DNA of 61,304 nucleotides, counting the filler, from Asterionella formosa (taxonomy: Eukaryota), in assembly GCA_002256025.1 (NCBI GenBank). It is 4 parts of 4 records of this genome, joined end to end, with 100 filler letters (N's around TTAATTAATTAA, not from the genome) between each part and the next. Parts side by side here need not be neighbours in the genome. Positions count along the whole stretch, not along the records: positions 46,081 to 61,304 come from NKIB01005543.1; 3 more parts are not named here. The stretch is one strand, 5' to 3'. The notes under the pieces are model-generated. The model did not search any database and was not told where the DNA came from. It worked only from the letters and a program-made list of their open reading frames with translations. Below, in pieces: positions 18,805 through 55,003 of this stretch. Both the position numbers and the translations under genes were made by a program. Numbering within the stretch: position 1 is the first letter of the stretch; every line of letters begins with the position of its first letter.

Positions 18805-21800
18805 GTTCTTTCCGAACCCATTGCCATAGAGGACACAACCTTCAGAGTCTACTTCCATAACATCAAGGGGCTACATCTCCAAAGGACCTCATCAGACCTC
18901 ATGTTTAATCTAGAATCAATGCGCGATATAGAAGCAAGCGTGTTTGGTTGGGCAGAAACAAACACCAACTGGAATCAAGAGGACGCACTGGCAGAATACA
19001 GGGACAAAGCCTCCCAAGAACAAGACAGTGTTCTCCTCTAGCAAAGTGCCATCTGCCTCAAAGTACAAACCAGGAGGAACTGCAATGACTCTGACAGGCA
19101 AATGGTGTCAGAGGGCCGAGCCGGGTGCAGGAAAAGATCCCTCAGGCATGGGCAGGTGGAGTTACATGGTATTGGAGGGCAAAACTGGTAAGGAACTATT
19201 AGTAATAACTGTATATAGAGTATCTCAAGTCTCAATGCCCCAACTTTGGGAAGGCACCACATATCATCAGGAGCACATGATCATGTCAAAAACAGGGTAC
19301 ATCAACCCAAATCCAAGGAAGCAGTTTATTCTAGACATGATTAAGTTCATTCAAGATCACCAGGGCAGAGAAAGAGAAATTTTACTTATGCTCAATGCAA
19401 ACGAGGAGGTTGGTAAAAAATCACAAGGTATAACAGCTCTAGTCCAGGAATGTTTGCTCAATGACATTTTAGCAACATACCATCCTGACAAACAAAAACC
19501 AGTAACATTCGACAGAGGTTCAAAGACAATCGACTACATATTAGGAAGCCAAAGGTGCAAGGAAACAATCCTGAGGGCAGGAGCGCTACCATTTTACCAC
19601 CAAATACAGGCGGACCACAGAGCGATATATGCGGACTTTGATGGGGAACAGCTCTTTGGTGGGAACCAGTCCTCAATCGTCTTGGCAAAACATAGAACCT
19701 TCACATCCAACAATCCAGCAGAGGTTGCGAAATATTTACAGGCAGTCAAAAAGTACTGGCGACTCCATATCTGAAAGGATAGAGAAACTACATGAGAACA
19801 TTAAAGACAAGGAAATCCAGGAAGTGCAGCAGGATTGGGAAAGCCTGGATGAGGAGATCGGCAGGTTCATGAAGATAGGAAAAAAGGCGCTCAAGAAACA
19901 ACCGTCTGGAAGATACTCCTGGTCCAAAACTCTACATCGTGCAGCATACACTCGACAATACTGGAAAAAGAGACCAAAGCTCCACAAATATGGCACAGAA
20001 GAAACAGAAGCCCTAGATACAATTAAGGAAATCGCGGGAATAAAATACGAGGACATGGGAAGAGGAGCATCTTTACTAGAAAAACTAGAGCAGTGGTCGA
20101 AGGAAAGCAAACAAAACGTCAAGGTTATTCAACGCGATTCGATATTTTTCAGAACAACTGAACTAAGAGAGGAAATATAAAAACTGAAAGGACAAACATC
20201 ATCAAAGGCTAAGAAGGAGATGAGGAGACTCCAGTCACTCCTATATTCAGAGCAACGAAAAAATGGATATAACCGACTGAAAAGCAGCATCTTCAATCCC
20301 AGCAAGGCAGCAGGAGCGCTCCTCACAAAGCAAAGTACTGCTTCCAGTCAGGGAAGGTCCTGAAAATAATAATATCACATGGAAAACAGAATTTGAAGCA
20401 GGCAGACTAGAAACAGCGCTTTTGGAACACTGCCACAGCCAATACAGAAGAGCCTCAGAAACTCAGTTTGGTCATGGACCGATTCAGGATCTCATAGGTT
20501 TTCATGGACTCACTCAGGCAGCAGACAAAATTCTGAGAGGAACTTTATTTGAGAACAACTACATCAGGCAGACACATTTGTTGATGATAAATCCCTGGGT
20601 TTCACTGGGCCCACAGGACAAGATCCCATGGACCTCTCCTATATGATAACCACAGTTACAAAATGTGCTCAACTGTGGGAGGACACTGCTGTTTGCCTTT
20701 CCGGAGGCGCCCTAGAACTTTCAAAGTGCTACTACCAGCTGATCCACTGGTACTGGGACTCCATGGGATTTCCGCAAATGCCTAGCTTGCGACCCATGGA
20801 CTCATTAGACACCGGATTCTATGAAACAACTCCAGGAACCTATTCAGCACTGGAATTGAGCTCGGGCCGAGAAGCTACCAAGACAAGAATCAAGCAAAGA
20901 GCAGCAAATCTCAGCAATAAATCACTAGGCATTTCGACAAGTCCGTCAGGGCAGTGGAAAGACGAGGACGAGAGACTGAAAATCAAAAGCAACACACATG
21001 CAGTCCTCACAATGTTGCACCAACTTCAAAGGCAGGATGCACACCAAGCCCATAGAATCATATGGGCACCTCAGATGACATATTCACTACCCATCACTGG
21101 TATGACGGGCAAACAACTCGAAGGTATTCAAAAAATGCCCGCAGAGCGAGCCTAGCTAAAATGGGTTTCAATCAAAATTTCCCAAAGGCTTCAGTGCATG
21201 GCCCCAAGGAGAGAGGAGCTCTAAGCATGGTAGACCTCACAGTGGAGCAGGGTATCCATGCAGTGGAAGGCTTCCTGTACCATAAATATGCTGATGATGA
21301 GGTGGCCAAACTGATGGACATTTCGCTTAGAATAGCACAACTGGAATCAGGACAAGAAGAACATCTCCTATTACATCCGGAGATTCAAATTCCATATCTC
21401 ACAAAATCATGGGTCACAGACATGAGGAATTTCATGGAAAAACACAATCTACAAATAGAAACTAGCAATCAGTGGTCGCCCCACAGCCACCTCATGTCAG
21501 AATGACGAAATGATAATGACAGCACTCATCAAAAAAGGAGTGAGCAAATACAAGCAATACCACATAAACGCGTGAAGAATGTACCTACAAGTATCAACAA
21601 TTTCAGATATTTCGACAGCAGATGGCTGGAATGGAAATCAGGCCTGAAATAATGCACTGCAGACGTGTGGCACACCGACACTCAAGATGGGAATGGCCAA
21701 GACAAGCTGAACCTACTGCAATGCAGAAGAAAGACTGGGTCGAGGCCCTCGGCAAACATCTCCTCACGCAGGGTTCAAAACAATTGCTGCAATTGAAAAC

Positions 21801-23960
21801 AAGGCTAGGAAAATGGCACACAAAACCATCAATGGAATGGGACTCAAACATTCACACACAAACGAAGACACTGTGGAAATACTCAAGAGACACAGGGGTC
21901 TGGCTCACTCACAGGGACATCTCACACCAACCCACTAGAATGAAATTTGACATCAGTAGTATAGGAAGCGATCAGAGGCAAGGAAGCCCACCGACAGATA
22001 GGCTTCCCTGCGATGTCCTCCAGACCGGGAGAATACAATTCAGGCTAAGGGAATGCGCTGCACCACTTCTAGCTCCAACAAAGCAAATATACGAGGTCAT
22101 CATCAAAGAATTACCCTTCCATCATTTTCGTCTACTGGAACATCTTCACTTTGCAAAGTCAGGAAAAGCTCTCGGCTACTCCGTCATTTAAAATTGGGCC
22201 TATCGATCAAAATAGCAACAGACGTCTCCATGCAAGGGGACAGGAGATGCTCTTTTGGCTGGTGCATTCGACTATCCAGGACATGCGACACTATACAGGA
22301 AACTATAGCGATATGCTCAGGCCCAGTGGATGGAGAGAGGAAACTATAGCGATATGCTCAGGCCCAGTGGATGGAGACATAAAAGCAAACAGCTCCACGC
22401 GCGCTGAATTGTTTGGGATTGCATCAAGTTTACTGTTTCTGACTATAACAATAAAAGCTCACAAAATCGACACGCAATCAGAGGTGCAAATATGGAGTGA
22501 TAGCGCAGCCTCCCTTGCAAGACTACACTTTCTATCATGGACAAAGCATCCCAGGCGTCCACTGGCCAATGCAGATATAGTGTCATCTATTGCTGATCTC
22601 ATCAGGGAACTACCCGTCCAAACGACAATCAGATAGATTAAAGCTCACCAGGAAAATGACAGCAACAGGATACTCACATCTGAAGCGGCAATGAATGTGA
22701 AAGCAGACGATCTAGCTACATCATTCCTGAAAAATCACAAAACAGAGGAGGATGGCGGGCCCCTTGCAAACTCAGCCCACTTTCAGGCCATGCATGCAAG
22801 TCTGATCAAGAACGGCACAAGAGTTCACAGCAGAGCAAGTTCGTCACTAAGAACTACCATACAAACAAACAGGTACAATGATGCCTACTTTCAAAACAAA
22901 CTCAGACTATCAACACAAAACATGATGAGCATCGATTGGGATAACCTCAAAAGCGCATATCTGAAACAAGACCACAAAACACAGGCCTTCATAGCAAAAT
23001 TTATTAATGGATGGCTTCCATGTGGAGCGAACGAGAAGGAAGATGATCGAACAGGGCAAGGATGAGTGCCCATACTGCGGCTTTCCAGAACAAAACGAAC
23101 ATATGCTACTATGCCAGAACACACAGGCAGTCTACCACCAGGGAGGTCGAGTCACAGCCATGACGACACAACTGCGTCGACATCAGGGGGGACAGGCAAC
23201 AACTACATTCTGGATTGGACTACTGAAGCACATCATGCAGGCAAAGCAGGGACAGTACATACCAAAATTCCCTCCAAACACGCCAAACTTTACAAAAACA
23301 ATACTTCGTCATGAGGCGGTGGAACACCAACTGGAACTGGGCGCCAAGCTCACTCTCCGGGGATATCTGAGCAGGAAATGGACAAGCGCATTCTGGACCT
23401 CCACAGGACAAAACCTTACAACAGAACAACATGGACACAAATGAACCAAAACGGCAATATCGCAACTCTGGAAAGTCACCCATAGCACCTGGACAGCAAG
23501 GAATGAGGAAGTTCACAGAGAAAAACACGAAGATATCAGCCAATCCGCAAAAAATGAAAGGATCAGGAGAATATACATGCTCGAAGGTTAAATATGCACC
23601 CAAGATAAGCACATTTTTGGTACAGAGCTAGAAACCCTGCTGAAATCGAGAATGAGCAAAAAACGCAGGTTCTTGGAAAGAGCAGACTTCCTAGTGGCTG
23701 CATCGAGAACTTTCGCGGCAACAGGCCAAACAACACTAAGAACATATTTCCTCTAAACAACATGCATCCCCAGGGCCAAACAACCGCAGAACGCTCCAGA
23801 CGCACACAGAAGAAGAGCCCAGAACACAACCAAGTGAAAATATCCAGGTTACAGACCCGAGCATCCACCAAGCGGTATCTCTAAACCAGGAACAGACCAT
23901 AGAAGACCCAAATTTTTTTACAAGACTCCTACACAAGGTAGTAGTGACCACCAACACTCA
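18805..23960 (+). mobile_element. Degenerate non-LTR retrotransposon (Ambal-like LINE): AP endonuclease, partial RT, RNase H, CCHC knuckle
   Basis: APE motifs FHNIKG, AETNTNW, DPSGMGRWS, SKTIDYILG and ADHRAIYAD. RT catalytic ADTFVDD at 20568-20588 is in frame with AQLWE..SGGALELSKC. RNase H motifs IATD..., STRAELFG, IWSDS and NVKADDLA. Knuckle CPYC..EHMLLC at ~23066-23115. Many stops and frameshifts; A-rich sense strand. Ends are approximate. Confidence 0.88.
22297..22377 (+). repeat. 41-nt tandem duplication that frameshifts the LINE RNase H
   Basis: AGGAAACTATAGCGATATGCTCAGGCCCAGTGGATGGAGA occurs at 22297 and 22338 (40 identical nt, period 41). Confidence 0.95.
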
Positions 23961-24987
23961 CCACCCACCGCCCCAATCTGAATGGGCCATGGAGCGCAAT
24001 AAATACAATCCTGTAGCTAGGCTAGTACTAATGCGCTATAAAAATTATTGAATAATATATCCAGCATTTACTTACACTAGTATATTGTCCACTTCTCCTC
24101 CTCTTCTCCACTGTCATCTTTGTGCCACTTGTGTTTGAATTGTAGGCATTTATAGCAATTAGAAAATTCATAGATTTTTTCTACCCTTAAATGTTGATTA
24201 TACACATATATATACTAGAAATGCTTGCTTCTGTTTGTCAATCAAAATTGATAGAAATAGTTGATTGTTCATGTGGCTAAAACTTTTTCGCATTCAGAAA
24301 ACTCGTCAGCAAGTGAATTCATTTAAAAAAAATCAATTTTCAATCCCTAAATTACTGATACCCATAATTTTGCAAATCCAGGCAGGTAAATGCTTTGGTG
24401 GGTATAGTACACTTGCATCCTTATTTCCATAAAAAGATGTCGTTCCAAGGCAGCTATCATAGCTACGTTTCTGGTGGTGGCCTCTCGCTCTTCTCCAATC
24501 TGTTAGGATATTTTATTATTGCTGGCTATTTGTTTCTACTTAATTGCTACTGGTATTTTAACTAAATTGCTTGGGATTGTTGGAGTTTCCTGATCCTCTT
24601 GGTGACAATCTTATGTACCACCTCCATTTCGTTTTTCAACAACTCATTCTTTCCAGGAGTAACTCCTTCTTCTTCGTCCTCTTCCTTATTCTTTCTCATT
24701 TTCGTAATTGTATAGCCTGGCTGATCTGTTCTTGGCCTGCATGGTAGCCCTCAGTTGCATTCACTTCTGTTGTGGTGATGATACTGGCAGCCTTCCTCTA
24801 TTTTGCACCAGTGTTTAATCAAGACATGAACTTTCCTGGCTGCAGACATTGTAACCACTACCCTAACATCTTTATATACTCTAGGGGTGTATTGCAGTTG
24901 TAATAAAATGCATGCATGAAAGAAATTACTAAATAACCCAACTCCTCTTGTGTCCTTCTTCCTCCACTTGATTACTTAAGTTCTAAC

Positions 24988-42740: not shown

Positions 42741-45116
42741 TCAAGTTTTTGCTTTTCCAAATGGTGACTCAAAGTAGAATAGTTCACCCTTGGCCTTTAC
42801 TTCTAGTTCCTGATGGCTTCCTGCATCGTCATATGAATTTTCATTTGTTCCATTATTTGTAGTTGGAACCCATCCAACGCCTTTATGGCACATATCATCC
42901 AAAAACTTCGTAAAGATGGTATCTGTTGCAGCATTTTCTCGTATGTACATGTAATCCATCATGATTTCGTCGCCTGCCTTGATATTCTTTTCTGCATGGA
43001 TGAGCATAACAAAAAGTTCTGACTTGCGAAGAAAAGGGGGAGAAAAGGGTGACGAAGGGATGTCATCTTCGCCAATGTACAACTCCTTTACCCAACAAGT
43101 GTTGATCTCAGCATCTGTACAACCATGGTTCATGAAAGTATTATTACAGGCAATGCTCCCAGCCCAACCGGTAGACCCCAAAGCAAATGATTCAAAGCCA
43201 TACACAATGAAAAAATTGCGAAGTTGATGGTACATGTCGGCTGCAGGAAAATCGTCGATGAATTTGTTCAAGGCATTCCATTGCTCACTATCTATACGAA
43301 GACTCAAGCCAGCATCATGAGGCAATATAAAATTCCCAGCTGGGCAATCCTTAATAGCAAAAAGAGATCGACCCTTCACTGGATGTTGCCGCACTTCTGT
43401 TCCATAAAAGTGATTGTTCACATCGAACCATTTTGCGAGGAATGATTTGCAAATGGGCATTTCTCGACCTGGCAATGACTTACAATACCAATGCTCCCAT
43501 GCTCGGGCGATCGTGTTGTATTTCTTATGCGTCATGCCATCATAAACAAGAGTCGGAAGCGCAGCAATGTTGGTGTGAAGCTTTTGAATAAGGTCAACCT
43601 CTATTGCTGGACTGTTTGTCCGCACAAACGAATTGTATGTATCCGAACCATTGGGGAATAGAACGAGAAATGCAGATGCAAGTGGTTTGGCCAAGGGCTC
43701 ATCATACACTGAACCTAGAAGATAGCCAAGACCATGAGGAGCGACGCGAAACGCTTGTCGAAGGAAATTGTCCCGAGGACTCAAATCGTTGTCCTCCACC
43801 TCAAAGAGTTTGGGCTGTGACCCAGCAGAAATCACCACGACAGATCTATTGCCTATGCTCCCATGCACATTTTTGTGAAAGTCAATGGCTAACCACTCGT
43901 CATTGTCGATTGGCACGTCGATGTACACAATATCAATGAAACCTTTGTAAAAATCAATATCAGGGGCAGCTAGTACTATGTCAGCAGATTGTTTCATCCA
44001 TGTCTTGGCATCAAGATCGGCAATCTCCACAATCTTTTGGTGAAGACACGATGTTTCCCCAGTGCCAAGAAATGTACAATCATCCAAGTGTGACATGAAC
44101 TTGTGCGTCGTCTCAATAATGGCGCGGTCCATACCCAAGACAACCACTTTCTGCACACTTTTGTGCTTCAGTATCTCTTTCAATGCCGCTGTCGGATCCA
44201 AGGACACAATGACAATATAATTGGGCGACTCACTGGAGATCAGGGCCGGATGTACTAGAGCTTCGGCATGGGCAGTGCCTGTAGGGTGTGATGTGGTTAG
44301 TAATTGTCCATTCAAAAACAAGGACTTGACTGGCTCAGTCAAGGTCAAATCTTGATATTGCCATAGTTCCAACGAAATGTTGTGTGATACGTCGGAGGAA
44401 ATGCGTGATCGATTCTTGAGAAGTGGTTGCGACAGAATAAGGTTATCGACTGAAGACGCTTTCAGATCAGCTAGCTTCTGTGATGCTGCCACTGTCAATG
44501 CATTATTGGTTGTGAGCTCTAAGGGGTTCAATCTCTCATGAATTGACCACCTTACTTCTTCAAAATTACCCTTATTGATATGACTATTGACTTTTGGGAC
44601 GTACTGTACCAATGCATCCTTGGCCACAAGTCTTCCATAGGTACTGTAGGACGTAATTGACACTTCAAGTTGCAGCACGATGACTTGATTCTGGCGAGAA
44701 TAGAAGTGAGCAGTCACATGAATTAAAGCATCCTCGTTCGTATCGTGATCAAATGTGCACTTTCCTCCTTGGCCTGGAATCTTTGCTTCGTAACAATTTT
44801 GACCTATTTCGAGAGTTCGTTCCTCAAAGAAGTCGTCAGAAACATGTCTACTAGCCTTCATTGTAGGGTCCTTTTTCAAGAAGAAGGTCTCAATGGCATC
44901 ATTCATGAAGGAATTGGATAATCCCAAGACCATACTGTATGGAATAGCAAAGCTCAGTTTGTCGTTTCGCTTGAGGTGGCCTTGAGTAATTTGAGGAGAC
45001 ACAATTCCATCGTAGAGGAGCTGCAAGGTGCTCGCAGTAGTTCTGGCAATGGAACACAAACAGATGCAGATAGCCATGAGCCGAACTCGAACTCGAACTC
45101 TCGTGTTGTACATCAT
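42741..45116 (-). CDS. Multidomain fusion: degenerate AdoMetDC-like + spermidine-synthase-like aminopropyltransferase + SET domain
   Basis: APT motifs LFLNGQL, EALVHPAL, LKEILKHKSVQKVV and DIVYID. SET motifs KGRSLFAIKD, FMNHGC and NIKAGDEIMMDY followed by a Cys. The N-terminal HVTAHFY..VIVLQL resembles AdoMetDC SHxSxHTWP..xxxDL. Hydrophobic N-terminus. The ORF track start at 45128 is TTG; first ATG is 45116. Confidence 0.8.
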   Translation of the reverse strand: MMYNTRVRVRVRLMAICICLCSIARTTASTLQLLYDGIVSPQITQGHLKRNDKLSFAIPYSMVLGLSNSFMNDAIETFFLKKDPTMKASRHVSDDFFEERTLEIGQNCYEAKIPGQGGKCTFDHDTNEDALIHVTAHFYSRQNQVIVLQLEVSITSYSTYGRLVAKDALVQYVPKVNSHINKGNFEEVRWSIHERLNPLELTTNNALTVAASQKLADLKASSVDNLILSQPLLKNRSRISSDVSHNISLELWQYQDLTLTEPVKSLFLNGQLLTTSHPTGTAHAEALVHPALISSESPNYIVIVSLDPTAALKEILKHKSVQKVVVLGMDRAIIETTHKFMSHLDDCTFLGTGETSCLHQKIVEIADLDAKTWMKQSADIVLAAPDIDFYKGFIDIVYIDVPIDNDEWLAIDFHKNVHGSIGNRSVVVISAGSQPKLFEVEDNDLSPRDNFLRQAFRVAPHGLGYLLGSVYDEPLAKPLASAFLVLFPNGSDTYNSFVRTNSPAIEVDLIQKLHTNIAALPTLVYDGMTHKKYNTIARAWEHWYCKSLPGREMPICKSFLAKWFDVNNHFYGTEVRQHPVKGRSLFAIKDCPAGNFILPHDAGLSLRIDSEQWNALNKFIDDFPAADMYHQLRNFFIVYGFESFALGSTGWAGSIACNNTFMNHGCTDAEINTCWVKELYIGEDDIPSSPFSPPFLRKSELFVMLIHAEKNIKAGDEIMMDYMYIRENAATDTIFTKFLDDMCHKGVGWVPTTNNGTNENSYDDAGSHQELEVKAKGELFYFESPFGKAKT

Positions 45117-46080: not shown

Positions 46081-46388
46081 TATTATGACTATTCTATTGC
46101 TGTTCCAAGTACATCGTTGTCAGCACTCACGCATGTACCTAATCTGGTGGCTGCGCCGGTATGGTTCGTACGGCGCATGTATGGAGCATCATATGCAGAT
46201 ATTAACAGAGTCACCAGGTTTTACGGTAGCTCAGTTAGATGTTCCGATTTGGTCGGAAAAACCTACTGATATTATGTACGGGTACATTGCCGTATGCTGG
46301 TCCCTGGCTGCTGCTGTGCGATTGTGAAAAACACAGCATCAGTTTGACTGATGAATATTTACCGTTGTTTTGAGTTTTCTCGATCACC

Positions 46389-46791
46389 ATGTTGTCCTCT
46401 CTCTCACGTAGCAGCCGAGTGATCGTGAATAGAGTGCAAAAGTATGTATATCAGAGAGGTTGCGGATGGAACGTTAGGCAGCGACGGCAAGGAAAATGAA
46501 GGAAAAATGGATCGAATGTCATTAATTGCTCACCCCCGTTTGTTCCCTTCCTGATCGACCACCGGTAGGCGATATATGGCCAAGTATGGCGACGGATTCC
46601 ACGTCCATAAGAACAAGTACATCGAGGAGTTGAATGGTCGTCGTGAAATTACAGAATTGAACTTCACCATGGATAAGAAGAAAGCACTAAGATCGTTTTT
46701 CTGGGTATTCCTTCTTCCCTATGGACTCTACCAATTCGTCCGCACGGAATTAAAGCTTCGAGGAGATCGTCGTTATAAAGACTGCTTTTGA
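46389..46791 (+). CDS. NDUFB4: Mitochondrial complex I accessory subunit B15/NDUFB4-like; exons 46389-46441 and 46569-46791
   Basis: Phase-2 intron 46442-46568 (GTATGT...GGTAG) yields MLSSLSRSSRVIVNRVQKRYMAKYG..., an Arg/Ser-rich mitochondrial presequence. The mature part KNKYIEE..GRRE..E.NF + TM helix resembles plant B15. Confidence 0.78.
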
Positions 46792-46905
46792 ATGAGTTGC
46801 ACCTGTTATCCTGGTAGAAAGTTCATGATTCCATTAGCAAGTACCAGTTAGAACCATGATGTTCGGATTGATGTGCTGTGAGTTTATGGCTATACTTGAA
46901 CAACT

Positions 46906-47357
46906 GCATCAGTTTAACTCATAATTTATATTAAAGTGTTCAGTTATCGATCATAATTTTATCCTCTCTCTCACGCAGCATCCGAACGATCGACAATTGA
47001 GTACAAAGTTATGTTATGTATCACTGAGAGGTCACAGATAGAACATTAGGCGGCAACAGCACGGAAAATGAAAAAGCATCGACTGTCAGTGATTGCTCAC
47101 AGCGTGGGGGGGGGGGGGGGAGGGGGGGCGGGGGGGAGGGGGAGGGGGGGGGGGGGCGGGGGGNNNNNNNNNNCCCCCCCCCTACCGATACCGATTAGGC
47201 GATCTATGTCTAAGTAAGGAAAAATGGCTCCATTTACTTTAGAACAGTATATAAAGGAGTCTAATGGTCGTCATGAGATTACGGAACTGAGCTTGAACAT
47301 GGGTGAAAAGGACGTACTAAGAAATGTTTTTCTAGGTAGTTTTCATTGTTCCCTAGT
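46906..47357 (+). pseudogene. Degraded tandem duplicate of the NDUFB4-like gene, including 5' flank and intron
   Basis: Colinear matches to 46337-46720 (GCATCAGTTT, TCCTCTCTCTCACG, ATTGCTCAC, TAGGCGAT.TATG, AATGGTCGTC.TGA.ATTAC). The first ATG is lost, there is an early TAA, and a G-run plus small N gap sits in the intron. Confidence 0.85.
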
Positions 47358-47554
47358 GACTCGGCGGATTCATCCACACTGAATTCAATTTTCTAGGTAT
47401 ATTTTCATTATAACGACTGTAATGAATGGGCGAAGTGTGGGGAATGATGCGAAAATTGTTCAGAAGCAGCGAACAATCTTCTCGATTTATTAGGATTTCC
47501 AATACTGATTGATAGCATGCAATATTAAAAATTGAGATAGGCACAAACAGAATT

Positions 47555-50500
47555 CTATTTGGTCATTTTGGTGCCCTTCGCTTTGCCTATAGTTTCAGAT
47601 TCTGTGTCATAGAACCAATCATCATCTTCCAGTTGAAAAAGACCCGGGACAAACCTTCCATCCCTTGAGTAATTGTCCAATCGCTTGTAGCCTCGTCCTT
47701 TCTGCCGTTTGCGTGGGCGTGGGTTGCCTTCCATGTCCGATTGGTCACCCAGGTAAGGGTCATCATCAGTCAGCCTATCTGCGGGCCTTCGCACAGCCAT
47801 GACTACTTCATTGGCATCCATATCATCTTGGGCTCCTGTTCGGAGGAACGTCAAGTCAACAACATTCCCGAATTTTGAAGAATCCATGCAATCATCATCC
47901 TCAGTCTTCACAGGCACACCGAGTGGATCAGGTGAACCCCAGGTTTTACCTTCATCGTCACTGCTAATGACAACCACTTCCGAAAACGAAACTTCCATCG
48001 GGTCAATGATAACGACATCGCTGGCATCATCATCATTGAAAACTGGTGCTGCATCATCAAGCCCAACTTTTTTGACAGCAAGCATAGGCGCTTCAATGCC
48101 AACAGAAACCAGAAAATCCTTGACCCATTGCATAGTTATCTGATGATCCAGCAGAAACGAAAGTGCATCTACTCGAAGGGTCTTCCATCCTACTCGCTCG
48201 ATTGACCTTTGCTGTTGAAACATCGATTTCCATTCTCCGAGGGACTCACCAGCTCCTTCAATGATGGCTGCCGCACGAGACCCAGAATGGGGACTTTCCA
48301 CACTTATACCCTTATTCCAAATTTTCCCCATTGAGCGATGGCCAAAATTTTCTTGTGCCAAGGCGCTTCGAAAGAGAGCAGATACTTGACGCTCAAACAT
48401 ACCAGTAGAATTTGGTTCATCCATCGTGGTATCCTCTATATCTTCGTTGTGTAGCTGAGCAAAGAAACCAATAATTGGAATTTTGATGTCCTGATTGTTA
48501 GATACGTGATTTGTGTTGATACTTCTGACAAGCACCAACCTATCACGGGCTCTAGATAGAGCTACATTGGCACGTTGGGCATGCATTAACTGAGTTTGAG
48601 AAGGGACGCTACCGGGAGAACAAACTAGGCTCAGAAAGACAATATCACGCTCTGCTCCCTGGAAGGAAGGAGGTTCTCCAACAAGAATATTATGTTCATT
48701 CATTTTTTGAGGCCCGATGACATCAAGGAGTCTTCCTCGAATAAGCCTGCTTTGGTCATCTCCTATTAAAGAAATGACACCAATACTTCGGGGGTGTCCA
48801 CTCGCATCATCACGGGAGACTTGATCTCGAATCATTTCAATGATCTTATCGCACTCTTTCTCGTTGATTTTTCCCACTTTGACACCTTCCACTTCTATAT
48901 CAACAAGTGATGGCGACAAACGCTCTTGACTTGTTGGTAATCGTAGTGGAACAAGTCGATTGTTGTAGAACTGACTGTTGCTGAATGCTATAATCTCTGG
49001 GGCACATCGAAAATGCTCCCGTAGAACTGCGCGGCCTTGAGGATACGCTTGACTACAAAGATCGAAAAAGCTGCACCCCGGTAAAAGCGATTCATCAAAT
49101 GGCGATTCAGGAACAGCAGCGCGGAGGTTGACAATGGAAACCTCAGAAATGAAAGCCTCCGTGGGGCTTACTTGTTTGCCGTCACCCACAATCAACCACT
49201 GTTTGCCTCGAAGAATTCCTGGTAAAGCTGTCACATCACTTTGTGATGCTTCATCAAGAACCACAAGGTCAAATAGGTCAAACTCGGCTGGTAAGTAGTC
49301 ACTAATCTGAGAAGAAGTAAGAATCCAGCAGGGGATGTAACGAACGCACCGCTCAAAGGCATCTAAATACTCTTGTCGATGACGGCGTTGACGCTGTGAG
49401 AGTTTGCTCAATTGTGCTGACTTTCCGAACTTCGACCTTGCCGCTATTTGGGAAAATCGGATGAGCTGACGTTGTGCTTCAACGTCAAACATACGACTTA
49501 GTTGGGTCATCATTGTCGCCTCAACCAATTCGGTGGACAACTGTTGAAGTTGACTTGCCACTTGCGTCCGTCTTAAATCAAGTTGCATTGCCTCCGCAGC
49601 CACTTTGCAAGTATCGAACAACTCATAATTCCACACAAGCTCCTTCAACTCTGACAGTTTCTTCATCCATACAATAAACTCCTTGTCGATACGCCTTCTC
49701 CCGCCGTTGTTCCTCATCACCTTGTCAACTGCCCACCCATTGGTAGTAATCAAGGGTTCCAACGTTGTCCTAATAAAATTATCGATCTCATGCTCCCGTC
49801 GAAGGGCAGAACAGACTATCTCCCAGTCAGACTTGGAAACAGGAGATTTTCCATCAAGGAGAAGACTTCCAACCAATTCGGTTAATTTTGCACATCTTGT
49901 TGTCAAACCCAAGAGGTTGCCGATGCCCGGTACTTTAGCGATGAATTGACTTACTGATGTGTTCAAGGACGACAGCGTCTCGCCTGCTTTTGATGCAACT
50001 AATGTGATCAAATTTCCAGAAACTGGACAAGAAAAGCCACTCACTCTCTCGATAATGTCCGAGGAATCAACAAACATCATATCGGCCCTTTCGGCAATCT
50101 CGTGAGCCTCCTCCACGCTAATTTTTCTCGCGGCTTCCAGCATCCATGGCACTTCATTCATCATTGAAATCGAAATATTCATAACTTTTTGCCCTTCCTC
50201 TGAGTGGACGAAGCGCGTTCTATGGTGAGCCTGAACCTCCAGCTTTGTATCAATTGATCTCACCTCTCCCTCAAGTGTATCAATCTTTCGTTGAAGAACT
50301 AGGCATCGCTCTTTGTGTACATCGTTGTTGAGACCAGATATTCTATCAGCGAGATGCTCCACTGTTTGTTGCAATTGACGCATACCCTGTGATTCACTCA
50401 TGGACACATCAACACACAATTCTCTTACACATGGTGGCAATCGATGTCGCAACACCGAGAGTGCTGGAGCACCCTTGGAGGTTACCAGCACCCTTTTCCC

Positions 50501-51985
50501 TTGAGATAGGTAATCACATACAATATTTGCAATGGTTTGACTTTTGCCACTACCTGGAGGCCCCTCACACACTACTGCAGGAACCCCTCTGGCAAGCAAC
50601 ATGGAAATTTGAGTCTGTGTTTCTGAGGTTGGCAGAGGCAATAAAGGCTTTATTGGCAGATCGGAATGTTTCGCAGTGCTTCCAGCAAATATTGATTTCA
50701 TGGAAATCCATACATCATGAAAATTATTTGCTCTTCCTTTGCTTCTACTTAACAAGTCCATCACTGCAGGACCATGTGTTAACGACCATGCAGCCATAGG
50801 TAGGCTCGATGCTGGTTGGGCCATTACATTTTCAGCCATTTTCGATGCATCTCGTGCCCACACAGTGCCCGGTTTGGGTCTATGAAAGACACACCAGTCA
50901 TCTGTCACAACCAGTTTCTTTGGATCAACATTGTTATACACATCGGCTGCACTAACAAAGCAACCATCAGGTGAAAGCTCAACAGCCAAACCTCTTAACA
51001 ATTTTGAATAAGTGTGTGGCTCTCCTGGAGCAAATTCATAAGTTTCTATTTCTGAAACGGTCCGATGCCACGAAGTAATTACATCAGTAGATCGAGTCAA
51101 AGCTGTCATTACTTCAGCATTGAGGTGTACGCCAGCATGTTGGCGTGGTCGAACTAACAAAGCTCCATCTCGAGCCAATTCCACTTCAACTAGTACTTCT
51201 AGTAATGGTCCATTCACAATCCTGCCATCCTCCAGCTGCTGCATTCCGTTCCCAAAGCCCCAAACTAAATCATCGTTCTCCCTTGCCTCCTGTAAACAAT
51301 CAAAGAGTCTATTGTATAGTGGTTCCAGTTCTTGTTTCATTGCAGCTCGCTTGAGGTACGTTTTGTATTGCCTAAGAAAATTTTTGATTTCTGTTTGTTG
51401 ATTTTGGCTCATGGAGGGTGGAGGCTTTGGTGCAGTGGCGAGTTGTTCTAGCGTCAATATTTTGGAGGAATTTATTCTCGAAATCAAATTCCATTGTTGC
51501 AAATACTCTTCAACTGCTGCACTTTTTGTCGAGGGTTTTGTTCGTTGTGACGTGAATCTAGTCAATCGAAGCCAACATGGTCTGTTATTATTAAAAGACA
51601 TGTTGGCTTCTAGTTTGTTAGTAGTTTTATATGTTTTTCGTTTGTTGGCGTCGGCTGTTGTTGCTATTGTTGTTCTGTTGGAGGAATAAAAGGAAAATGG
51701 CGGTGTACCACCCAGTTCAGCAGTGTGCTTCGTAATGCGACGAAAGTCATTTGTCGTGAATAGTATTCTATCTTCTATTCCCTGGAAATAGGCCAAAGTT
51801 TTGCCACTGGCATGTTCACGAACAAAGGAAAGTCGATCCACATCGTCGGCACCTACTTGGTGCATTTTCGAAATGTAATGTAAAATTTGAGCCAAACGCT
51901 TTTTGTGAGTCGCTTCCGCATCAGTTAGGGACGATAAAGTCACTGCCTTCGTCCATGATGATGATGATGATGATGTGGATTCCAT
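47555..51985 (-). CDS. Superfamily-1 (UPF1/DNA2-like) helicase of bacterial architecture with a C-terminal Vsr/MTES_1575-like domain
   Basis: Walker A EGPPGSGKSQTIANI, KRVLVTS, DEASQ, GDGKQ, LREHFRC, FQGAERD and NVALSRARD. C-terminal QRSIERVGWKTLRV. Single open frame of ~4.4 kb; first ATG at 51985. Confidence 0.88.
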   Translation of the reverse strand: MESTSSSSSSWTKAVTLSSLTDAEATHKKRLAQILHYISKMHQVGADDVDRLSFVREHASGKTLAYFQGIEDRILFTTNDFRRITKHTAELGGTPPFSFYSSNRTTIATTADANKRKTYKTTNKLEANMSFNNNRPCWLRLTRFTSQRTKPSTKSAAVEEYLQQWNLISRINSSKILTLEQLATAPKPPPSMSQNQQTEIKNFLRQYKTYLKRAAMKQELEPLYNRLFDCLQEARENDDLVWGFGNGMQQLEDGRIVNGPLLEVLVEVELARDGALLVRPRQHAGVHLNAEVMTALTRSTDVITSWHRTVSEIETYEFAPGEPHTYSKLLRGLAVELSPDGCFVSAADVYNNVDPKKLVVTDDWCVFHRPKPGTVWARDASKMAENVMAQPASSLPMAAWSLTHGPAVMDLLSRSKGRANNFHDVWISMKSIFAGSTAKHSDLPIKPLLPLPTSETQTQISMLLARGVPAVVCEGPPGSGKSQTIANIVCDYLSQGKRVLVTSKGAPALSVLRHRLPPCVRELCVDVSMSESQGMRQLQQTVEHLADRISGLNNDVHKERCLVLQRKIDTLEGEVRSIDTKLEVQAHHRTRFVHSEEGQKVMNISISMMNEVPWMLEAARKISVEEAHEIAERADMMFVDSSDIIERVSGFSCPVSGNLITLVASKAGETLSSLNTSVSQFIAKVPGIGNLLGLTTRCAKLTELVGSLLLDGKSPVSKSDWEIVCSALRREHEIDNFIRTTLEPLITTNGWAVDKVMRNNGGRRRIDKEFIVWMKKLSELKELVWNYELFDTCKVAAEAMQLDLRRTQVASQLQQLSTELVEATMMTQLSRMFDVEAQRQLIRFSQIAARSKFGKSAQLSKLSQRQRRHRQEYLDAFERCVRYIPCWILTSSQISDYLPAEFDLFDLVVLDEASQSDVTALPGILRGKQWLIVGDGKQVSPTEAFISEVSIVNLRAAVPESPFDESLLPGCSFFDLCSQAYPQGRAVLREHFRCAPEIIAFSNSQFYNNRLVPLRLPTSQERLSPSLVDIEVEGVKVGKINEKECDKIIEMIRDQVSRDDASGHPRSIGVISLIGDDQSRLIRGRLLDVIGPQKMNEHNILVGEPPSFQGAERDIVFLSLVCSPGSVPSQTQLMHAQRANVALSRARDRLVLVRSINTNHVSNNQDIKIPIIGFFAQLHNEDIEDTTMDEPNSTGMFERQVSALFRSALAQENFGHRSMGKIWNKGISVESPHSGSRAAAIIEGAGESLGEWKSMFQQQRSIERVGWKTLRVDALSFLLDHQITMQWVKDFLVSVGIEAPMLAVKKVGLDDAAPVFNDDDASDVVIIDPMEVSFSEVVVISSDDEGKTWGSPDPLGVPVKTEDDDCMDSSKFGNVVDLTFLRTGAQDDMDANEVVMAVRRPADRLTDDDPYLGDQSDMEGNPRPRKRQKGRGYKRLDNYSRDGRFVPGLFQLEDDDWFYDTESETIGKAKGTKMTK

Positions 51986-52835
51986 CGTTCGCTGAGATTG
52001 CTTTGCTGCTGGTGTAATTGTAACAGCGGTAGTATTTATAGAATCGAAGAATAGAAATGATATTGCTGATAGAACGAGTATACCGGGGCGGGGGTAGGTA
52101 GACAAAAAGCAATAATCGATAAAGCAAATCGAGATTGAGAGAATTCAGCCAAGAAGTGGTTTACACACGTACATACATTTATGTACGGACGGCTGCATAA
52201 ATTCATAATTCGTAACAAGAATCGTCATCGCGCCATCGTCGTAGGCCGATGCCGCCGCGTCTACATACCGGTAGTCCTTTCGTCCCTTTCAAATTGCTTA
52301 CCGGTGCCTACTTACTAACTACAGTATCGGTATGGACATAGCGTTGGATCGTGTTTGATCCAGACGAGGAGGCCAAAGCCATGCGAAGTGCCGTGCGGTG
52401 AATGAGACATTTAGCTTGGTTTTCTTTCTAGTGAGAACCGTCTTTTACCGAACCTCCCTGTAATAACTCCTTGTACTCATTCGTTGTTTCAGTGTAGGTA
52501 CTGTACCTCCCGGGATACACTTGTTATTTATACTCCCCCACCCACCTGCGTCTGATACGTACGTACCTGGCAGTCCACTCCAATACCGGGATCATGTCGT
52601 AGCAAAATGCCCTCGCATCACGCATTTGCTTGGCTTTCTTCGTACTCGCTCTTTTAAAGTATTGCATGTTGCTCATACATATATATAGTCGAGGCTCAAT
52701 AACGCGTACTTAAAAATTTAGTTACCACATATATATAAGAATATCTGTATGTGCATGTGTGTATGTACCGGTAGCTGTTGTTCTTGTTCTTTTCCATTGC
52801 AGCATACCATTAAGTGAGTAATCGAGCAGTTGACG

Positions 52836-53885
52836 ATGAAGTGTTCAGTTCCCTTCCTTCTGCTCCTTATCGCATTAGCTCCAACATGCCAGTCTCTCAG
52901 CAATATCTTCCCCAACCTCCTTGACACACTCGAAATGGCGCTCTTGTCGAGTGTTGTGTATCAGATGTGGGGGTCCGACGGATGCAACGCCACCTTGCTT
53001 CCACAGGACGTGACATGTCACTACTATCATCACGACAAGTCGCAGGGGGCTCAAGTCTTGGTAGTCACTTCCGACGATTATATTGCCATCGTATTTGCGG
53101 GAACGGACGATTTGCGAACCAGCATTGCAGACGGAGACATACTGCTAAAGCCATTTGGACCACTAGACGAACTGGGTGACAGCATTAAACTTCCTGGACC
53201 AGCTAGAGTGCATGCCGGATTTGACAATGCTGTCTTTGAAGATGGACTATACGACACTGTGGTGGAAGTTGTCAATGAGCTGCGAGAAATAAACGCCAAT
53301 TACCGATTATTCACGACAGGCCACTCGCTGGGGGCGTCCGATTCACTCTTGCTCAGCGTAGGACTTGCCTTGGACTACCCAGATTTGACTATTTCCAACA
53401 TTAATTTCGGATGTCCCCGGACTGGAAATCATGAATGGAGGCAGCGGATTCATCACTCCTTGCCAAATTTGAGTGTCTTTCGGTTCGTCCTGGGCTGGGA
53501 CTTGGTACCGAGACTGCCAGAATATCCCTTTCATCACGTTGGTCACACGGTCCAACTCGACACGGACAGTGCCAAGGCATATTATTTGCATAATGGCAAC
53601 GCAACATTAGATTATTCCGGAGTGCCAATGGGATGGGACAGTATGCCGTTCTTTTGGCTCCCAGGAGCCTTAACATCGCATCACATAACGCGGTATCAAG
53701 ACTTTTTTCTTCAATTCAGTGTACCAAATGAAGAGTTGTTTTTTGTGGATAAGTTTGAGCGTGTAACGCCAATAAATGATGATCATCCTCCAAATGTCAA
53801 TGATGATAAATATGTGAATCCACCAGATGACATGTTAATGTTCGAGGAGGAGCTGCTGTTGACAAGTTATGCCGCTGTCGGCTAA
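52836..53885 (+). CDS. Secreted class 3 lipase
   Basis: Signal peptide; motifs IVFAGTD, VHAGF, nucleophile elbow GHSLG, NFGCPRTGN, DLVPRLP and HVG. Confidence 0.93.
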   Translation: MKCSVPFLLLLIALAPTCQSLSNIFPNLLDTLEMALLSSVVYQMWGSDGCNATLLPQDVTCHYYHHDKSQGAQVLVVTSDDYIAIVFAGTDDLRTSIADGDILLKPFGPLDELGDSIKLPGPARVHAGFDNAVFEDGLYDTVVEVVNELREINANYRLFTTGHSLGASDSLLLSVGLALDYPDLTISNINFGCPRTGNHEWRQRIHHSLPNLSVFRFVLGWDLVPRLPEYPFHHVGHTVQLDTDSAKAYYLHNGNATLDYSGVPMGWDSMPFFWLPGALTSHHITRYQDFFLQFSVPNEELFFVDKFERVTPINDDHPPNVNDDKYVNPPDDMLMFEEELLLTSYAAVG

Positions 53886-54259
53886 GCTTGCAGTCGCATC
53901 ATTGATGGTCTCATTGAAAAGTGTTATACTTTATCCGCTGCGGCTTTTCAGTCATTCTAAGATTTTTACATCCATGTTCTGAAAACCTTGCTAACGACGA
54001 TTGCCTATGTACAAAATTTCCACTTGTTTCGTCTCATGAGAAGGGTAAAACCTTCGCGACAACAATGAATTCCAGCACGGCACACTACCGGCAGTTGGAC
54101 TCCGTGCCAACTCTGAACAAAAAACAACATGTATAGTCCCCCTTCTACTACATTCTTTTCCAACTTGGAGCCTTGAATGAGGCAACGGAACAATGCAATT
54201 TAATATTTGTGTTTTTAATTTGAAAGAAGAGTTAATTCCAACATTTTAACTACACATTA

Positions 54260-55003
54260 TCATCTCTTTAAATACTGCTTAAAAAACAATCTCACTTGAT
54301 CCTTTTGCTCCTCCGTCTCGGGTGAATTAATAGGTGTAGCTGGGTTCCGAACATTGGCATATGTTTGAATTCGTTCCAGTGCTTCTTCCGCACCCATACC
54401 ATTATACATACACCCTAACATACAAGCAGCGACAAGCCCTGCTCGTCCTTTGCCTCCCCAACAATGTAAGTATAGTACTTCATCCTCTTTCTCTTCCATT
54501 CTACGTTTCAATTCACCAGTAAGTTGCACTAAATCGTCCATACTATCGGCAGGTTGAAAATCTCGAATCCCCATGTATATAAACTTAGCAGGCGTATCGG
54601 GATAAAACTGATTGGCCTCCATGGCATAATTCACAAATCCAGGCATGATGTTGCATGTCGCTTCCCCAGCAGACAGTTCTTCACCAAATACTAAAGTATC
54701 TGGTGATTGTGGCGGTACTTCTGCTTGTAGACAAACAAATGTCGTAACACCAAAGTCTTGTCGTAAGACACGCATTCGTTCCAAGCTATCACCACGACCT
54801 GATCCAGGGTTTCGGCCCTGTATTAGTTTTCCAGGAATGACCCAATTGGCATAAGGTGAAATGAAATGAGATTGTCGAAGTGTTGGCAAGTCTGAAAGCG
54901 ATGTAATGATGAGCGCATTTGTTGGATGGATTGTTGTCCCCCAAGTTAGCAGTATGACGAATACTATCGTGTTGGTGACAGCAGTTATGGCAACATAAAC
55001 CAT
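54260..55003 (-). CDS. Cys-based protein tyrosine / dual-specificity phosphatase-like protein
   Basis: P-loop YLHCWGGKGRAG (CX5R), NWVIPGKL and SPETEEQ. Hydrophobic N-terminal signal. Confidence 0.9.
   Translation of the reverse strand: MVYVAITAVTNTIVFVILLTWGTTIHPTNALIITSLSDLPTLRQSHFISPYANWVIPGKLIQGRNPGSGRGDSLERMRVLRQDFGVTTFVCLQAEVPPQSPDTLVFGEELSAGEATCNIMPGFVNYAMEANQFYPDTPAKFIYMGIRDFQPADSMDDLVQLTGELKRRMEEKEDEVLYLHCWGGKGRAGLVAACMLGCMYNGMGAEEALERIQTYANVRNPATPINSPETEEQKDQVRLFFKQYLKR

Follow-up and report, generated by a model that had tools for sequence, protein, structure and literature searches.

We analyzed a 61,304-nucleotide stretch of the diatom Asterionella formosa genome (assembly GCA_002256025.1; four parts of four records joined end to end, hereafter the window) and identified a gene for a 1476-aa protein that very probably descends from a bacterial family of superfamily 1B (SF1B) helicase-nucleases. 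Its C-terminal domain keeps the Vsr fold of that family and has in all likelihood lost nuclease activity, its helicase motor is intact by motifs, and an acidic tail carrying motifs like the SUMO-interacting motif (SIM) and basic clusters is a diatom addition. Our tentative reading is that the protein has been domesticated as a nuclear motor on nucleic acid, carries a pseudo-nuclease, and has a constitutive surveillance role.

Gene, transcripts, and protein motifs

The gene lies on the minus strand, in a frame of 1529 codons from stop to stop (47555-52144) whose first ATG is at 51985. A preliminary description of this DNA had claimed an uninterrupted frame of about 1480 aa, and this is confirmed as an intronless gene at a single locus. 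Its 15.2-kb contig (NKIB01005543.1) also carries lipase, phosphatase, GST-like, gamma-glutamyltranspeptidase, and FkbM genes; because these are ordinary eukaryotic genes, a contaminant contig is excluded. The second match in the organism's own genome comes from an allelic contig that shares 99.8% identity across 12.4 kb, and no expansion of the gene family was found in the A. formosa genome beyond the one locus and this contig. The proviso that the gene might not be transcribed was checked in polyA RNA of field samples, where 11 of the 13 listed runs contain the stretch and 7 contain at least half of its words. RNA contigs of four runs cover the frame without a joint and show its presence, not strand or level. 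The longest single piece over the frame measures 4155 bases (run X1), and positions 52176-52486 are uncovered in all four RNA runs aligned to the locus.

Every motif quoted in the preliminary description occurs at its expected place: LVWGFG (residues 240-245), GPLLEV (259-264), GPPGSGKS (475-482), RVLVTSK (498-504), DEASQ (911-915), GDGKQ (934), HFRC (991), FQGAE (1108), NVALSRAR (1140), GISVE (1226), IIEGAG (1241), QRSIERVGW (1259-1267), and PRPRKRQK (1422-1429). The complete SF1 motif set that had been proposed is present, with motifs I-VI of an SF1B helicase located and Pfam matches to AAA_12 (65.5 bits) and AAA_11 (36.7 bits) above the cut-off of 27. Motifs II-V are kept in 43-44 of 44 diatom, 4/4 Picozoa-linked, and 10/10 pelagophyte/haptophyte rows, groups that are introduced below. 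The long insertion noted between Walker A and DEASQ is also real, DEASQ lying 436 aa past Walker A, and it is ~260 aa shorter than its bacterial counterpart. Median Walker A-B distances are 431 in diatoms (55 rows), 435 in the Picozoa-linked clade (4), 798 in pelagophytes and haptophytes (13), and 688 in bacteria (216). The N-terminal region is inherited from the bacterial family, to whose N-terminus it aligns (HHalign 99.9%, E 2e-33, 375 columns), and is a candidate substrate-sensing part.

Origin and distribution

A homologue search listed 120 rows: the protein itself, 89 of diatom type (40-73% identity), 4 that match the full query at 32-34%, and 26 bacterial-type proteins of ~1550 aa. Past the algal rows the next matches are bacterial, at 40-45% core identity. 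Named diatoms among the matches listed include Seminavis, Nitzschia, Cylindrotheca, Fistulifera, Amphora, Pseudo-nitzschia, Mayamaea, Extubocellulus, Thalassiosira, and Attheya, so that orthologues occur in both pennate and centric lineages. No protein named for Phaeodactylum tricornutum, Thalassiosira pseudonana, or Fragilariopsis cylindrus is among the 120 rows listed, and no direct search was made; the gene's possible absence from these model diatoms would explain why it has gone unnoticed. One of the four rows at 32-34% clusters with a 121-aa single-cell fragment from Picomonas judraskeda to which it is 100% identical. This fragment is the sole taxonomic anchor of the clade that we call Picozoa-linked, and may be a co-sorted contaminant. 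The C-terminal tails of three proteins of this clade (P0092-P0094) have a short segment that is absent from the diatom copies and, by eye, resembles what we take to be the start of a DnaJ domain.

A word-free search added the pelagophytes Pelagophyceae CCMP2097, Chrysophaeum, and Aureoumbra, as well as a divergent second diatom copy (Seminavis Sro16_g011930), and Aureococcus and the haptophyte Prymnesium parvum came from a search that started with a pelagophyte protein. The acquisition is consequently not specific to diatoms. By best BLAST group, with labels assigned by similarity, the 426 matches comprise 261 bacterial, 126 diatom, 18 pelagophyte/haptophyte, 5 Picozoa-linked, and 2 paralogue proteins, and 14 without the core. 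Second diatom copies (P0187, which is Seminavis Sro16_g011930, P0194, and P0174) evolve fast, at 35-39% core identity; the helicase motifs are kept in the two that were scored, and no SIM-like tail was seen. A row in the accessible part of the PMC7335047 supplement gives the Seminavis second copy a piN/piS of 0.58; the main Seminavis copy, unlike this paralogue, is not among the matches listed there.

The preliminary description had inferred horizontal acquisition, and the trees agree, with the algal proteins grouping inside the bacterial family. In a FastTree analysis of 173 rows without outgroup, a single branch (98) separates all 56 eukaryote-type rows from the rest. With Hhe and ProA, the helicase-nucleases of two known defence systems, and four of the organism's own SF1 helicases included, the algal and bacterial proteins form a clade (99) far from both, and the A. 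formosa UPF1-, IGHMBP2-, and MOV10-like genes fall far outside it. With nearer bacterial outgroups and a mixture model, applied to 42 of 82 rows (the 40 omitted to limit run time include the two paralogues on long branches), all 13 eukaryote rows group in a single clade (99 in a quick tree, 94/82 in a careful IQ-TREE run) nested in a bacterial family clade (100/99) whose deep branches are not resolved. All outer branches are prokaryotic, so a transfer from bacteria to eukaryotes is the simplest account. It was probably a single event, and the donor phylum cannot be named from the tree.

The C-terminal domain

A Vsr-like C-terminal tail had been proposed, and the domain does have the Vsr fold, with a weak Pfam match to MTES_1575 in the A. 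formosa protein (15.2 bits versus a cut-off of 38.2). The suggested replacement of the ID...ExDG nuclease residues also holds, GISVE...IIEGAG standing in their place; at the columns of ID...ExDG...H the protein has G, I, E(G), and E. The D and ExDG pair occurs in 244 of 250 bacterial and in none of 125 eukaryote-type C-terminal domains, and by alignment column the catalytic D is present in 117/117 bacteria versus 0/45 diatoms. No eukaryote group retains the D and E that bacteria keep almost without exception; different small or hydrophobic residues take their place. The same E-to-C change appears in 4/4 Picozoa-linked, 5/5 pelagophyte, and 8/45 diatom rows. The accessible text of bioRxiv 2022.06.16.496414 reports that a nuclease-site mutation abolishes defence by Hhe. 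With its nuclease decayed, the algal protein would be incapable of Hhe-style action.

The diatom tail

An acidic tail with a basic cluster like a nuclear localization signal (NLS), PRPRKRQK, had been described and is indeed present. Diatom tails are ~220 aa long and 27% acidic. A SIM-like motif occurs in 93 of 102, versus 15.1 expected from shuffles, and 47 have two or more; bacterial tails have it in 21/111 versus 17.1 expected. Basic clusters are found in 38 of 39 diatom tails, versus 19.4 expected from shuffles. A SUMO gene is present in the A. formosa genome, and we consider it rather likely that the protein is nuclear and linked to SUMO. A separate 381-codon frame (L147, G000:C85) encodes two SUMO-like domains and an acidic N-terminus, and is presumably Rad60/NIP45-like.

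Genomic neighborhoods of the bacterial family

The genome scan gave 26 bacterial loci, of which 19 were examined (the other 7 were 3 short contigs and 4 matches that were partial or broken), with 136 neighboring open reading frames (ORFs) scanned. A known defence system lies within ~5.5 kb at 7 of the 19, a count that has no random-gene control. The neighbors are CBASS (L020), type I restriction-modification (R-M) (L021, L022), type II/IIG R-M (L023), Zorya II (L024), a type III methylase piece with PDC-M30/41 (L027), and a HamB-like helicase with WYL and dynamin genes (L029). Toxin-type genes (MazF, Fic, AbiU2) are near three further loci, and nine have neither. Among six plasmid regions, four have a defence system nearby: one is downstream of a BREX-1 operon, one is near AbiE, and two adjoin DUF4194 and TIGR02679/80 genes, which we take to be Wadjet-type. 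Of the other two, one has an integrase only and one is unannotated. In one genome a true Hhe is found ~22 kb from a member of the family. Bacterial relatives pass no curated model in either set scanned (7 of 10 proteins in one, 10 in the second). The loci L019-L039, L097-L099, and L132-L134 stand as an unnamed single-gene defence candidate that passed no PADLOC or NCBIfam model; many have a GreA/GreB-like C-terminal domain.

Possible role and alternative explanations

We propose that an algal ancestor received, by ancient transfer from bacteria, a defence-island SF1B helicase-nuclease. The protein would enter the nucleus, where SUMO-marked chromatin or nuclear bodies may recruit it, and would use ATP to move 5' to 3', the rule for SF1B helicases, on single-stranded nucleic acid. 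The dead nuclease domain could hold the substrate, and the motor could unwind RNA:DNA hybrids or aberrant DNA intermediates that host enzymes then process. Such a protein would be a constitutive genome-surveillance motor, senataxin-like in role, and not a self-contained cutting effector. Housekeeping-like traits, namely one locus, orthologues in pennate and centric diatoms, and presence in polyA RNA, are consistent with this proposal, and we lean slightly toward surveillance over dedicated immunity.

Several observations weigh against the proposal. The donor family looks like a defence-island gene, and absence from the three model diatoms, if a real loss, would argue against an essential housekeeping role and favor a dispensable, defence-like one. 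The SIM pattern (the consensus plus an acidic/serine run) was set after the tail consensus had been seen, acidic tails of nuclear proteins commonly contain SIM-like motifs, and among pelagophytes and haptophytes just 3 of 12 tails do. The support for eukaryote monophyly (94/82) is just below the star threshold, and the clade was not recovered in three other trees; with Hhe/ProA outgroups the root falls among the eukaryote rows, and two further trees are similar. Long outgroup branches can misplace a root in this manner. A dedicated antiviral or anti-transposon factor, in which bacterial sensing is kept and the output is rewired from cutting so that viral or mobile nucleic acid is silenced or sequestered in a SUMO-dependent way, would fit the retention of the entire N-terminal region, the patchy algal distribution, and the fast-evolving Seminavis copy, along with the defence systems near the bacterial loci and plasmid regions and the nearby Hhe. 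Precedents exist among defence proteins with eukaryotic immune homologues (PMC13276650, in the part accessible to us). Such a factor is nevertheless unlikely, if a serious contender: no tested defence function was found for the bacterial family, which passed no curated model, 12 of the 19 loci lack a known system in a count without random-gene control, and the A. formosa genome shows no expansion. We are more doubtful of the fullest version of this idea, in which an early eukaryote of the red-plastid algal assemblage acquired an undescribed single-gene anti-phage family in one event, the nuclease was lost immediately, and diatoms converted the protein into a nuclear sensor that is recruited by SUMO and detects foreign nucleic acid.

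An RNA helicase for ribonucleoprotein remodeling or RNA decay, like UPF1 or MOV10, with the dead nuclease binding RNA as RAP domains do, seems improbable given that the donor domain is of DNA-endonuclease type, that tail motifs point to the nucleus, and that the genome already has UPF1-, SEN1-, IGHMBP2-, AQR-, and MOV10-like genes (named by reading the sequences). We give still less credence to a C-terminal domain that cuts through a rearranged active site, in a working Hhe-like helicase-nuclease. The fold is intact, one acidic position is kept (D/E in 44/45 diatoms), a second column has E in 31/45, and the W, Q, R, and W of the last helix and strand are nearly invariant, but the loss of the near-invariant bacterial D and E in all eukaryote groups makes activity very hard to envisage. 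On the question of origin alone, the same bacterial family could have been the source of two or three separate transfers, into diatoms with the Picozoa-linked clade and into pelagophytes with haptophytes, with nuclease loss after each. This would suit the sharply different insertion lengths (431/435 versus 798) as well as the results from FastTree and from one quick tree built with distant outgroups, in which eukaryote groups are paraphyletic or not resolved. The single eukaryote clade of three trees (98, 99, 94/82) and the E-to-C change common to Picozoa-linked, pelagophyte, and some diatom rows make this doubtful.

Features of the gene and the rest of the window

Features of the A. formosa helicase gene (positions in the window)
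Feature	Position	Strand	Basis
Whole gene, 1476 aa, intronless	47555..51985	-	Frame; contigs of four RNA runs without joint
N-terminal alpha/beta region, residues 19-446	50648..51931	-	HHalign to bacterial N-terminus; model pLDDT 85
LVWGFG...GPLLEV beta-hairpin block	51194..51268	-	Faint likeness to LYLAxGFLxW...APL motif of Hhe/ProA
Helicase motifs I (GPPGSGKS) and Ia (RVLVTSK)	50474..50563	-	Motif positions
Long insertion between motifs Ia and II (approximate limits)	49406..50398	-	Walker A-B distances
Helicase motifs II-VI (DEASQ, GDGKQ, HFRC, FQGAE, NVALSRAR)	48545..49255	-	Pfam and motif positions
Vsr/MTES_1575-fold pseudo-nuclease, residues 1194-1297; catalytic D, E, H positions replaced	48095..48406	-	
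Acidic tail, SIM-like DVVIIDP, VVVISSDDE, VVDLT	47849..48019	-	SIM consensus
Basic cluster PRPRKRQK, NLS-like	47699..47722	-	Cluster counts in diatom tails versus shuffles
Conserved diatom tail motif YSRDGRF	47651..47671	-	[SA]RDxR[WFY] in 56/99 diatom tails

Downstream of the gene, and set apart from it by a poly-G gap, are two segments that by eye are similar and apparently duplicated (46340-46800 and 46930-47420). Convergent lipase and phosphatase genes occupy 52836-55003; single RNA contigs cover both in two runs, which suggests that their 3' ends overlap. On the minus strand, a 791-aa ORF (42741-45116) combines a methyltransferase stretch resembling spermine synthase with a SET domain at the C-terminus, and a DUF924 protein (31009-31794, 126.6 bits), bacterial according to Pfam, is another possible transfer. 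A strong AT skew (0.24-0.39) with short ORFs extends over 5 kb (19001-24000), and GC content falls to 0.21 at 32001-33000.

Significance

Little is known of how bloom-forming algae resist viruses within the cell, and few genes of bacterial defence type have been followed into these organisms. No report of this family in algae was found in the literature searched, although gene-transfer catalogues may already list the gene. The accessible parts of PMC13069673 and PMC11232893 do not treat this helicase family; that defence proteins can have eukaryotic homologues is well established (PMC13276650 and PMC13700489, likewise as far as accessible). The family offers a clear before and after, an armed bacterial family versus a uniformly disarmed eukaryotic one retained across several algal lines, and it flags the bacterial family as a defence candidate. 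If a sensor role were true, diatoms, pelagophytes, and haptophytes would have in this protein a testable candidate for intrinsic immunity against viruses, and nature would here have exchanged an effector domain for a signaling tail. Should its algal job be housekeeping, the protein would still be a clean illustration of how a helicase-nuclease can become a motor that carries a pseudo-nuclease.

Comparison with known systems

UPF1, SEN1/SETX, IGHMBP2, and MOV10 belong to the same SF1B fold family as the algal protein, and we propose SETX as its functional analogue. The algal protein's separation from them is supported by PDB comparison and the tree: UPF1-like helicases reach just E 5e-7 to 6e-5 in PDB, fall far outside the clade, and are without a Vsr-fold domain.

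The Hhe-like architecture first suggested was right as to kinship with Hhe-type helicase-nucleases and wrong as to membership. Hhe is likewise an SF1B helicase with a long insertion and a C-terminal Vsr-fold domain, and a Klebsiella Hhe is ~26% identical to the algal one over 671 columns. Unlike the algal protein, Hhe requires its nuclease site and forms a separate clade on a long branch. The Hhe model NF042953 gives 117.1 bits against a cut-off of 2000 (2575.8 for a true Hhe). The predicted DUF4011-type N-terminus was not found, the Pfam scan of the protein giving no match to PF13195 at E <= 0.1. HHalign against Hhe/ProA N-termini gave 0.2% for the diatom region and 2% (E 0.023) for the bacterial one, and an ESM Atlas lead to DUF4011 scored 0.88 for the N-terminal block; a remote beta module common to this block and Hhe/ProA could still exist.

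Prometheus ProA shares the helicase-nuclease layout and is the best NCBIfam match (NF058533, 164 bits against a cut-off of 1500), with neither DUF4011 nor DUF3320 in the Pfam scan of the algal protein; it clusters with Hhe, apart from the algal protein's family. The accessible part of PMC13700489 presents Prometheus as kin of eukaryotic antiviral enzymes that act on R-loops. PADLOC gave partial matches to PDC-S37, MkoA/C, and Hhe. PDC-S37 ranks first for the query (136 bits) as well as for each of the 20 relatives scanned, with 146-265 bits on a model of 1550 positions whose N-terminus is unmatched, as for a neighbor family and not the same one. Mokosh MkoA/MkoC match in the helicase only (74-108 bits), and no partner nuclease gene was found among the adjoining lipase, phosphatase, and SET-domain genes.

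The closest counterpart is an unnamed bacterial AAA_11/AAA_12 plus MTES_1575 family of ~1500-1700 aa, exemplified by WP_252380332.1 of Desulfovulcanus ferrireducens (P0096). It is colinear with the algal protein over the N-terminal region, helicase, and C-terminal domain, shares 40-45% core identity, and falls in the same clade. It differs in its retained nuclease site (244/250), an insertion longer than that of diatoms, the lack of a SIM-rich tail, and a frequent GreA/GreB-like C-terminal fusion (PF01272). From its sequence, the algal protein has the ancestry and layout of the Hhe/Prometheus class and is a member of neither, belonging instead to this unnamed bacterial family.

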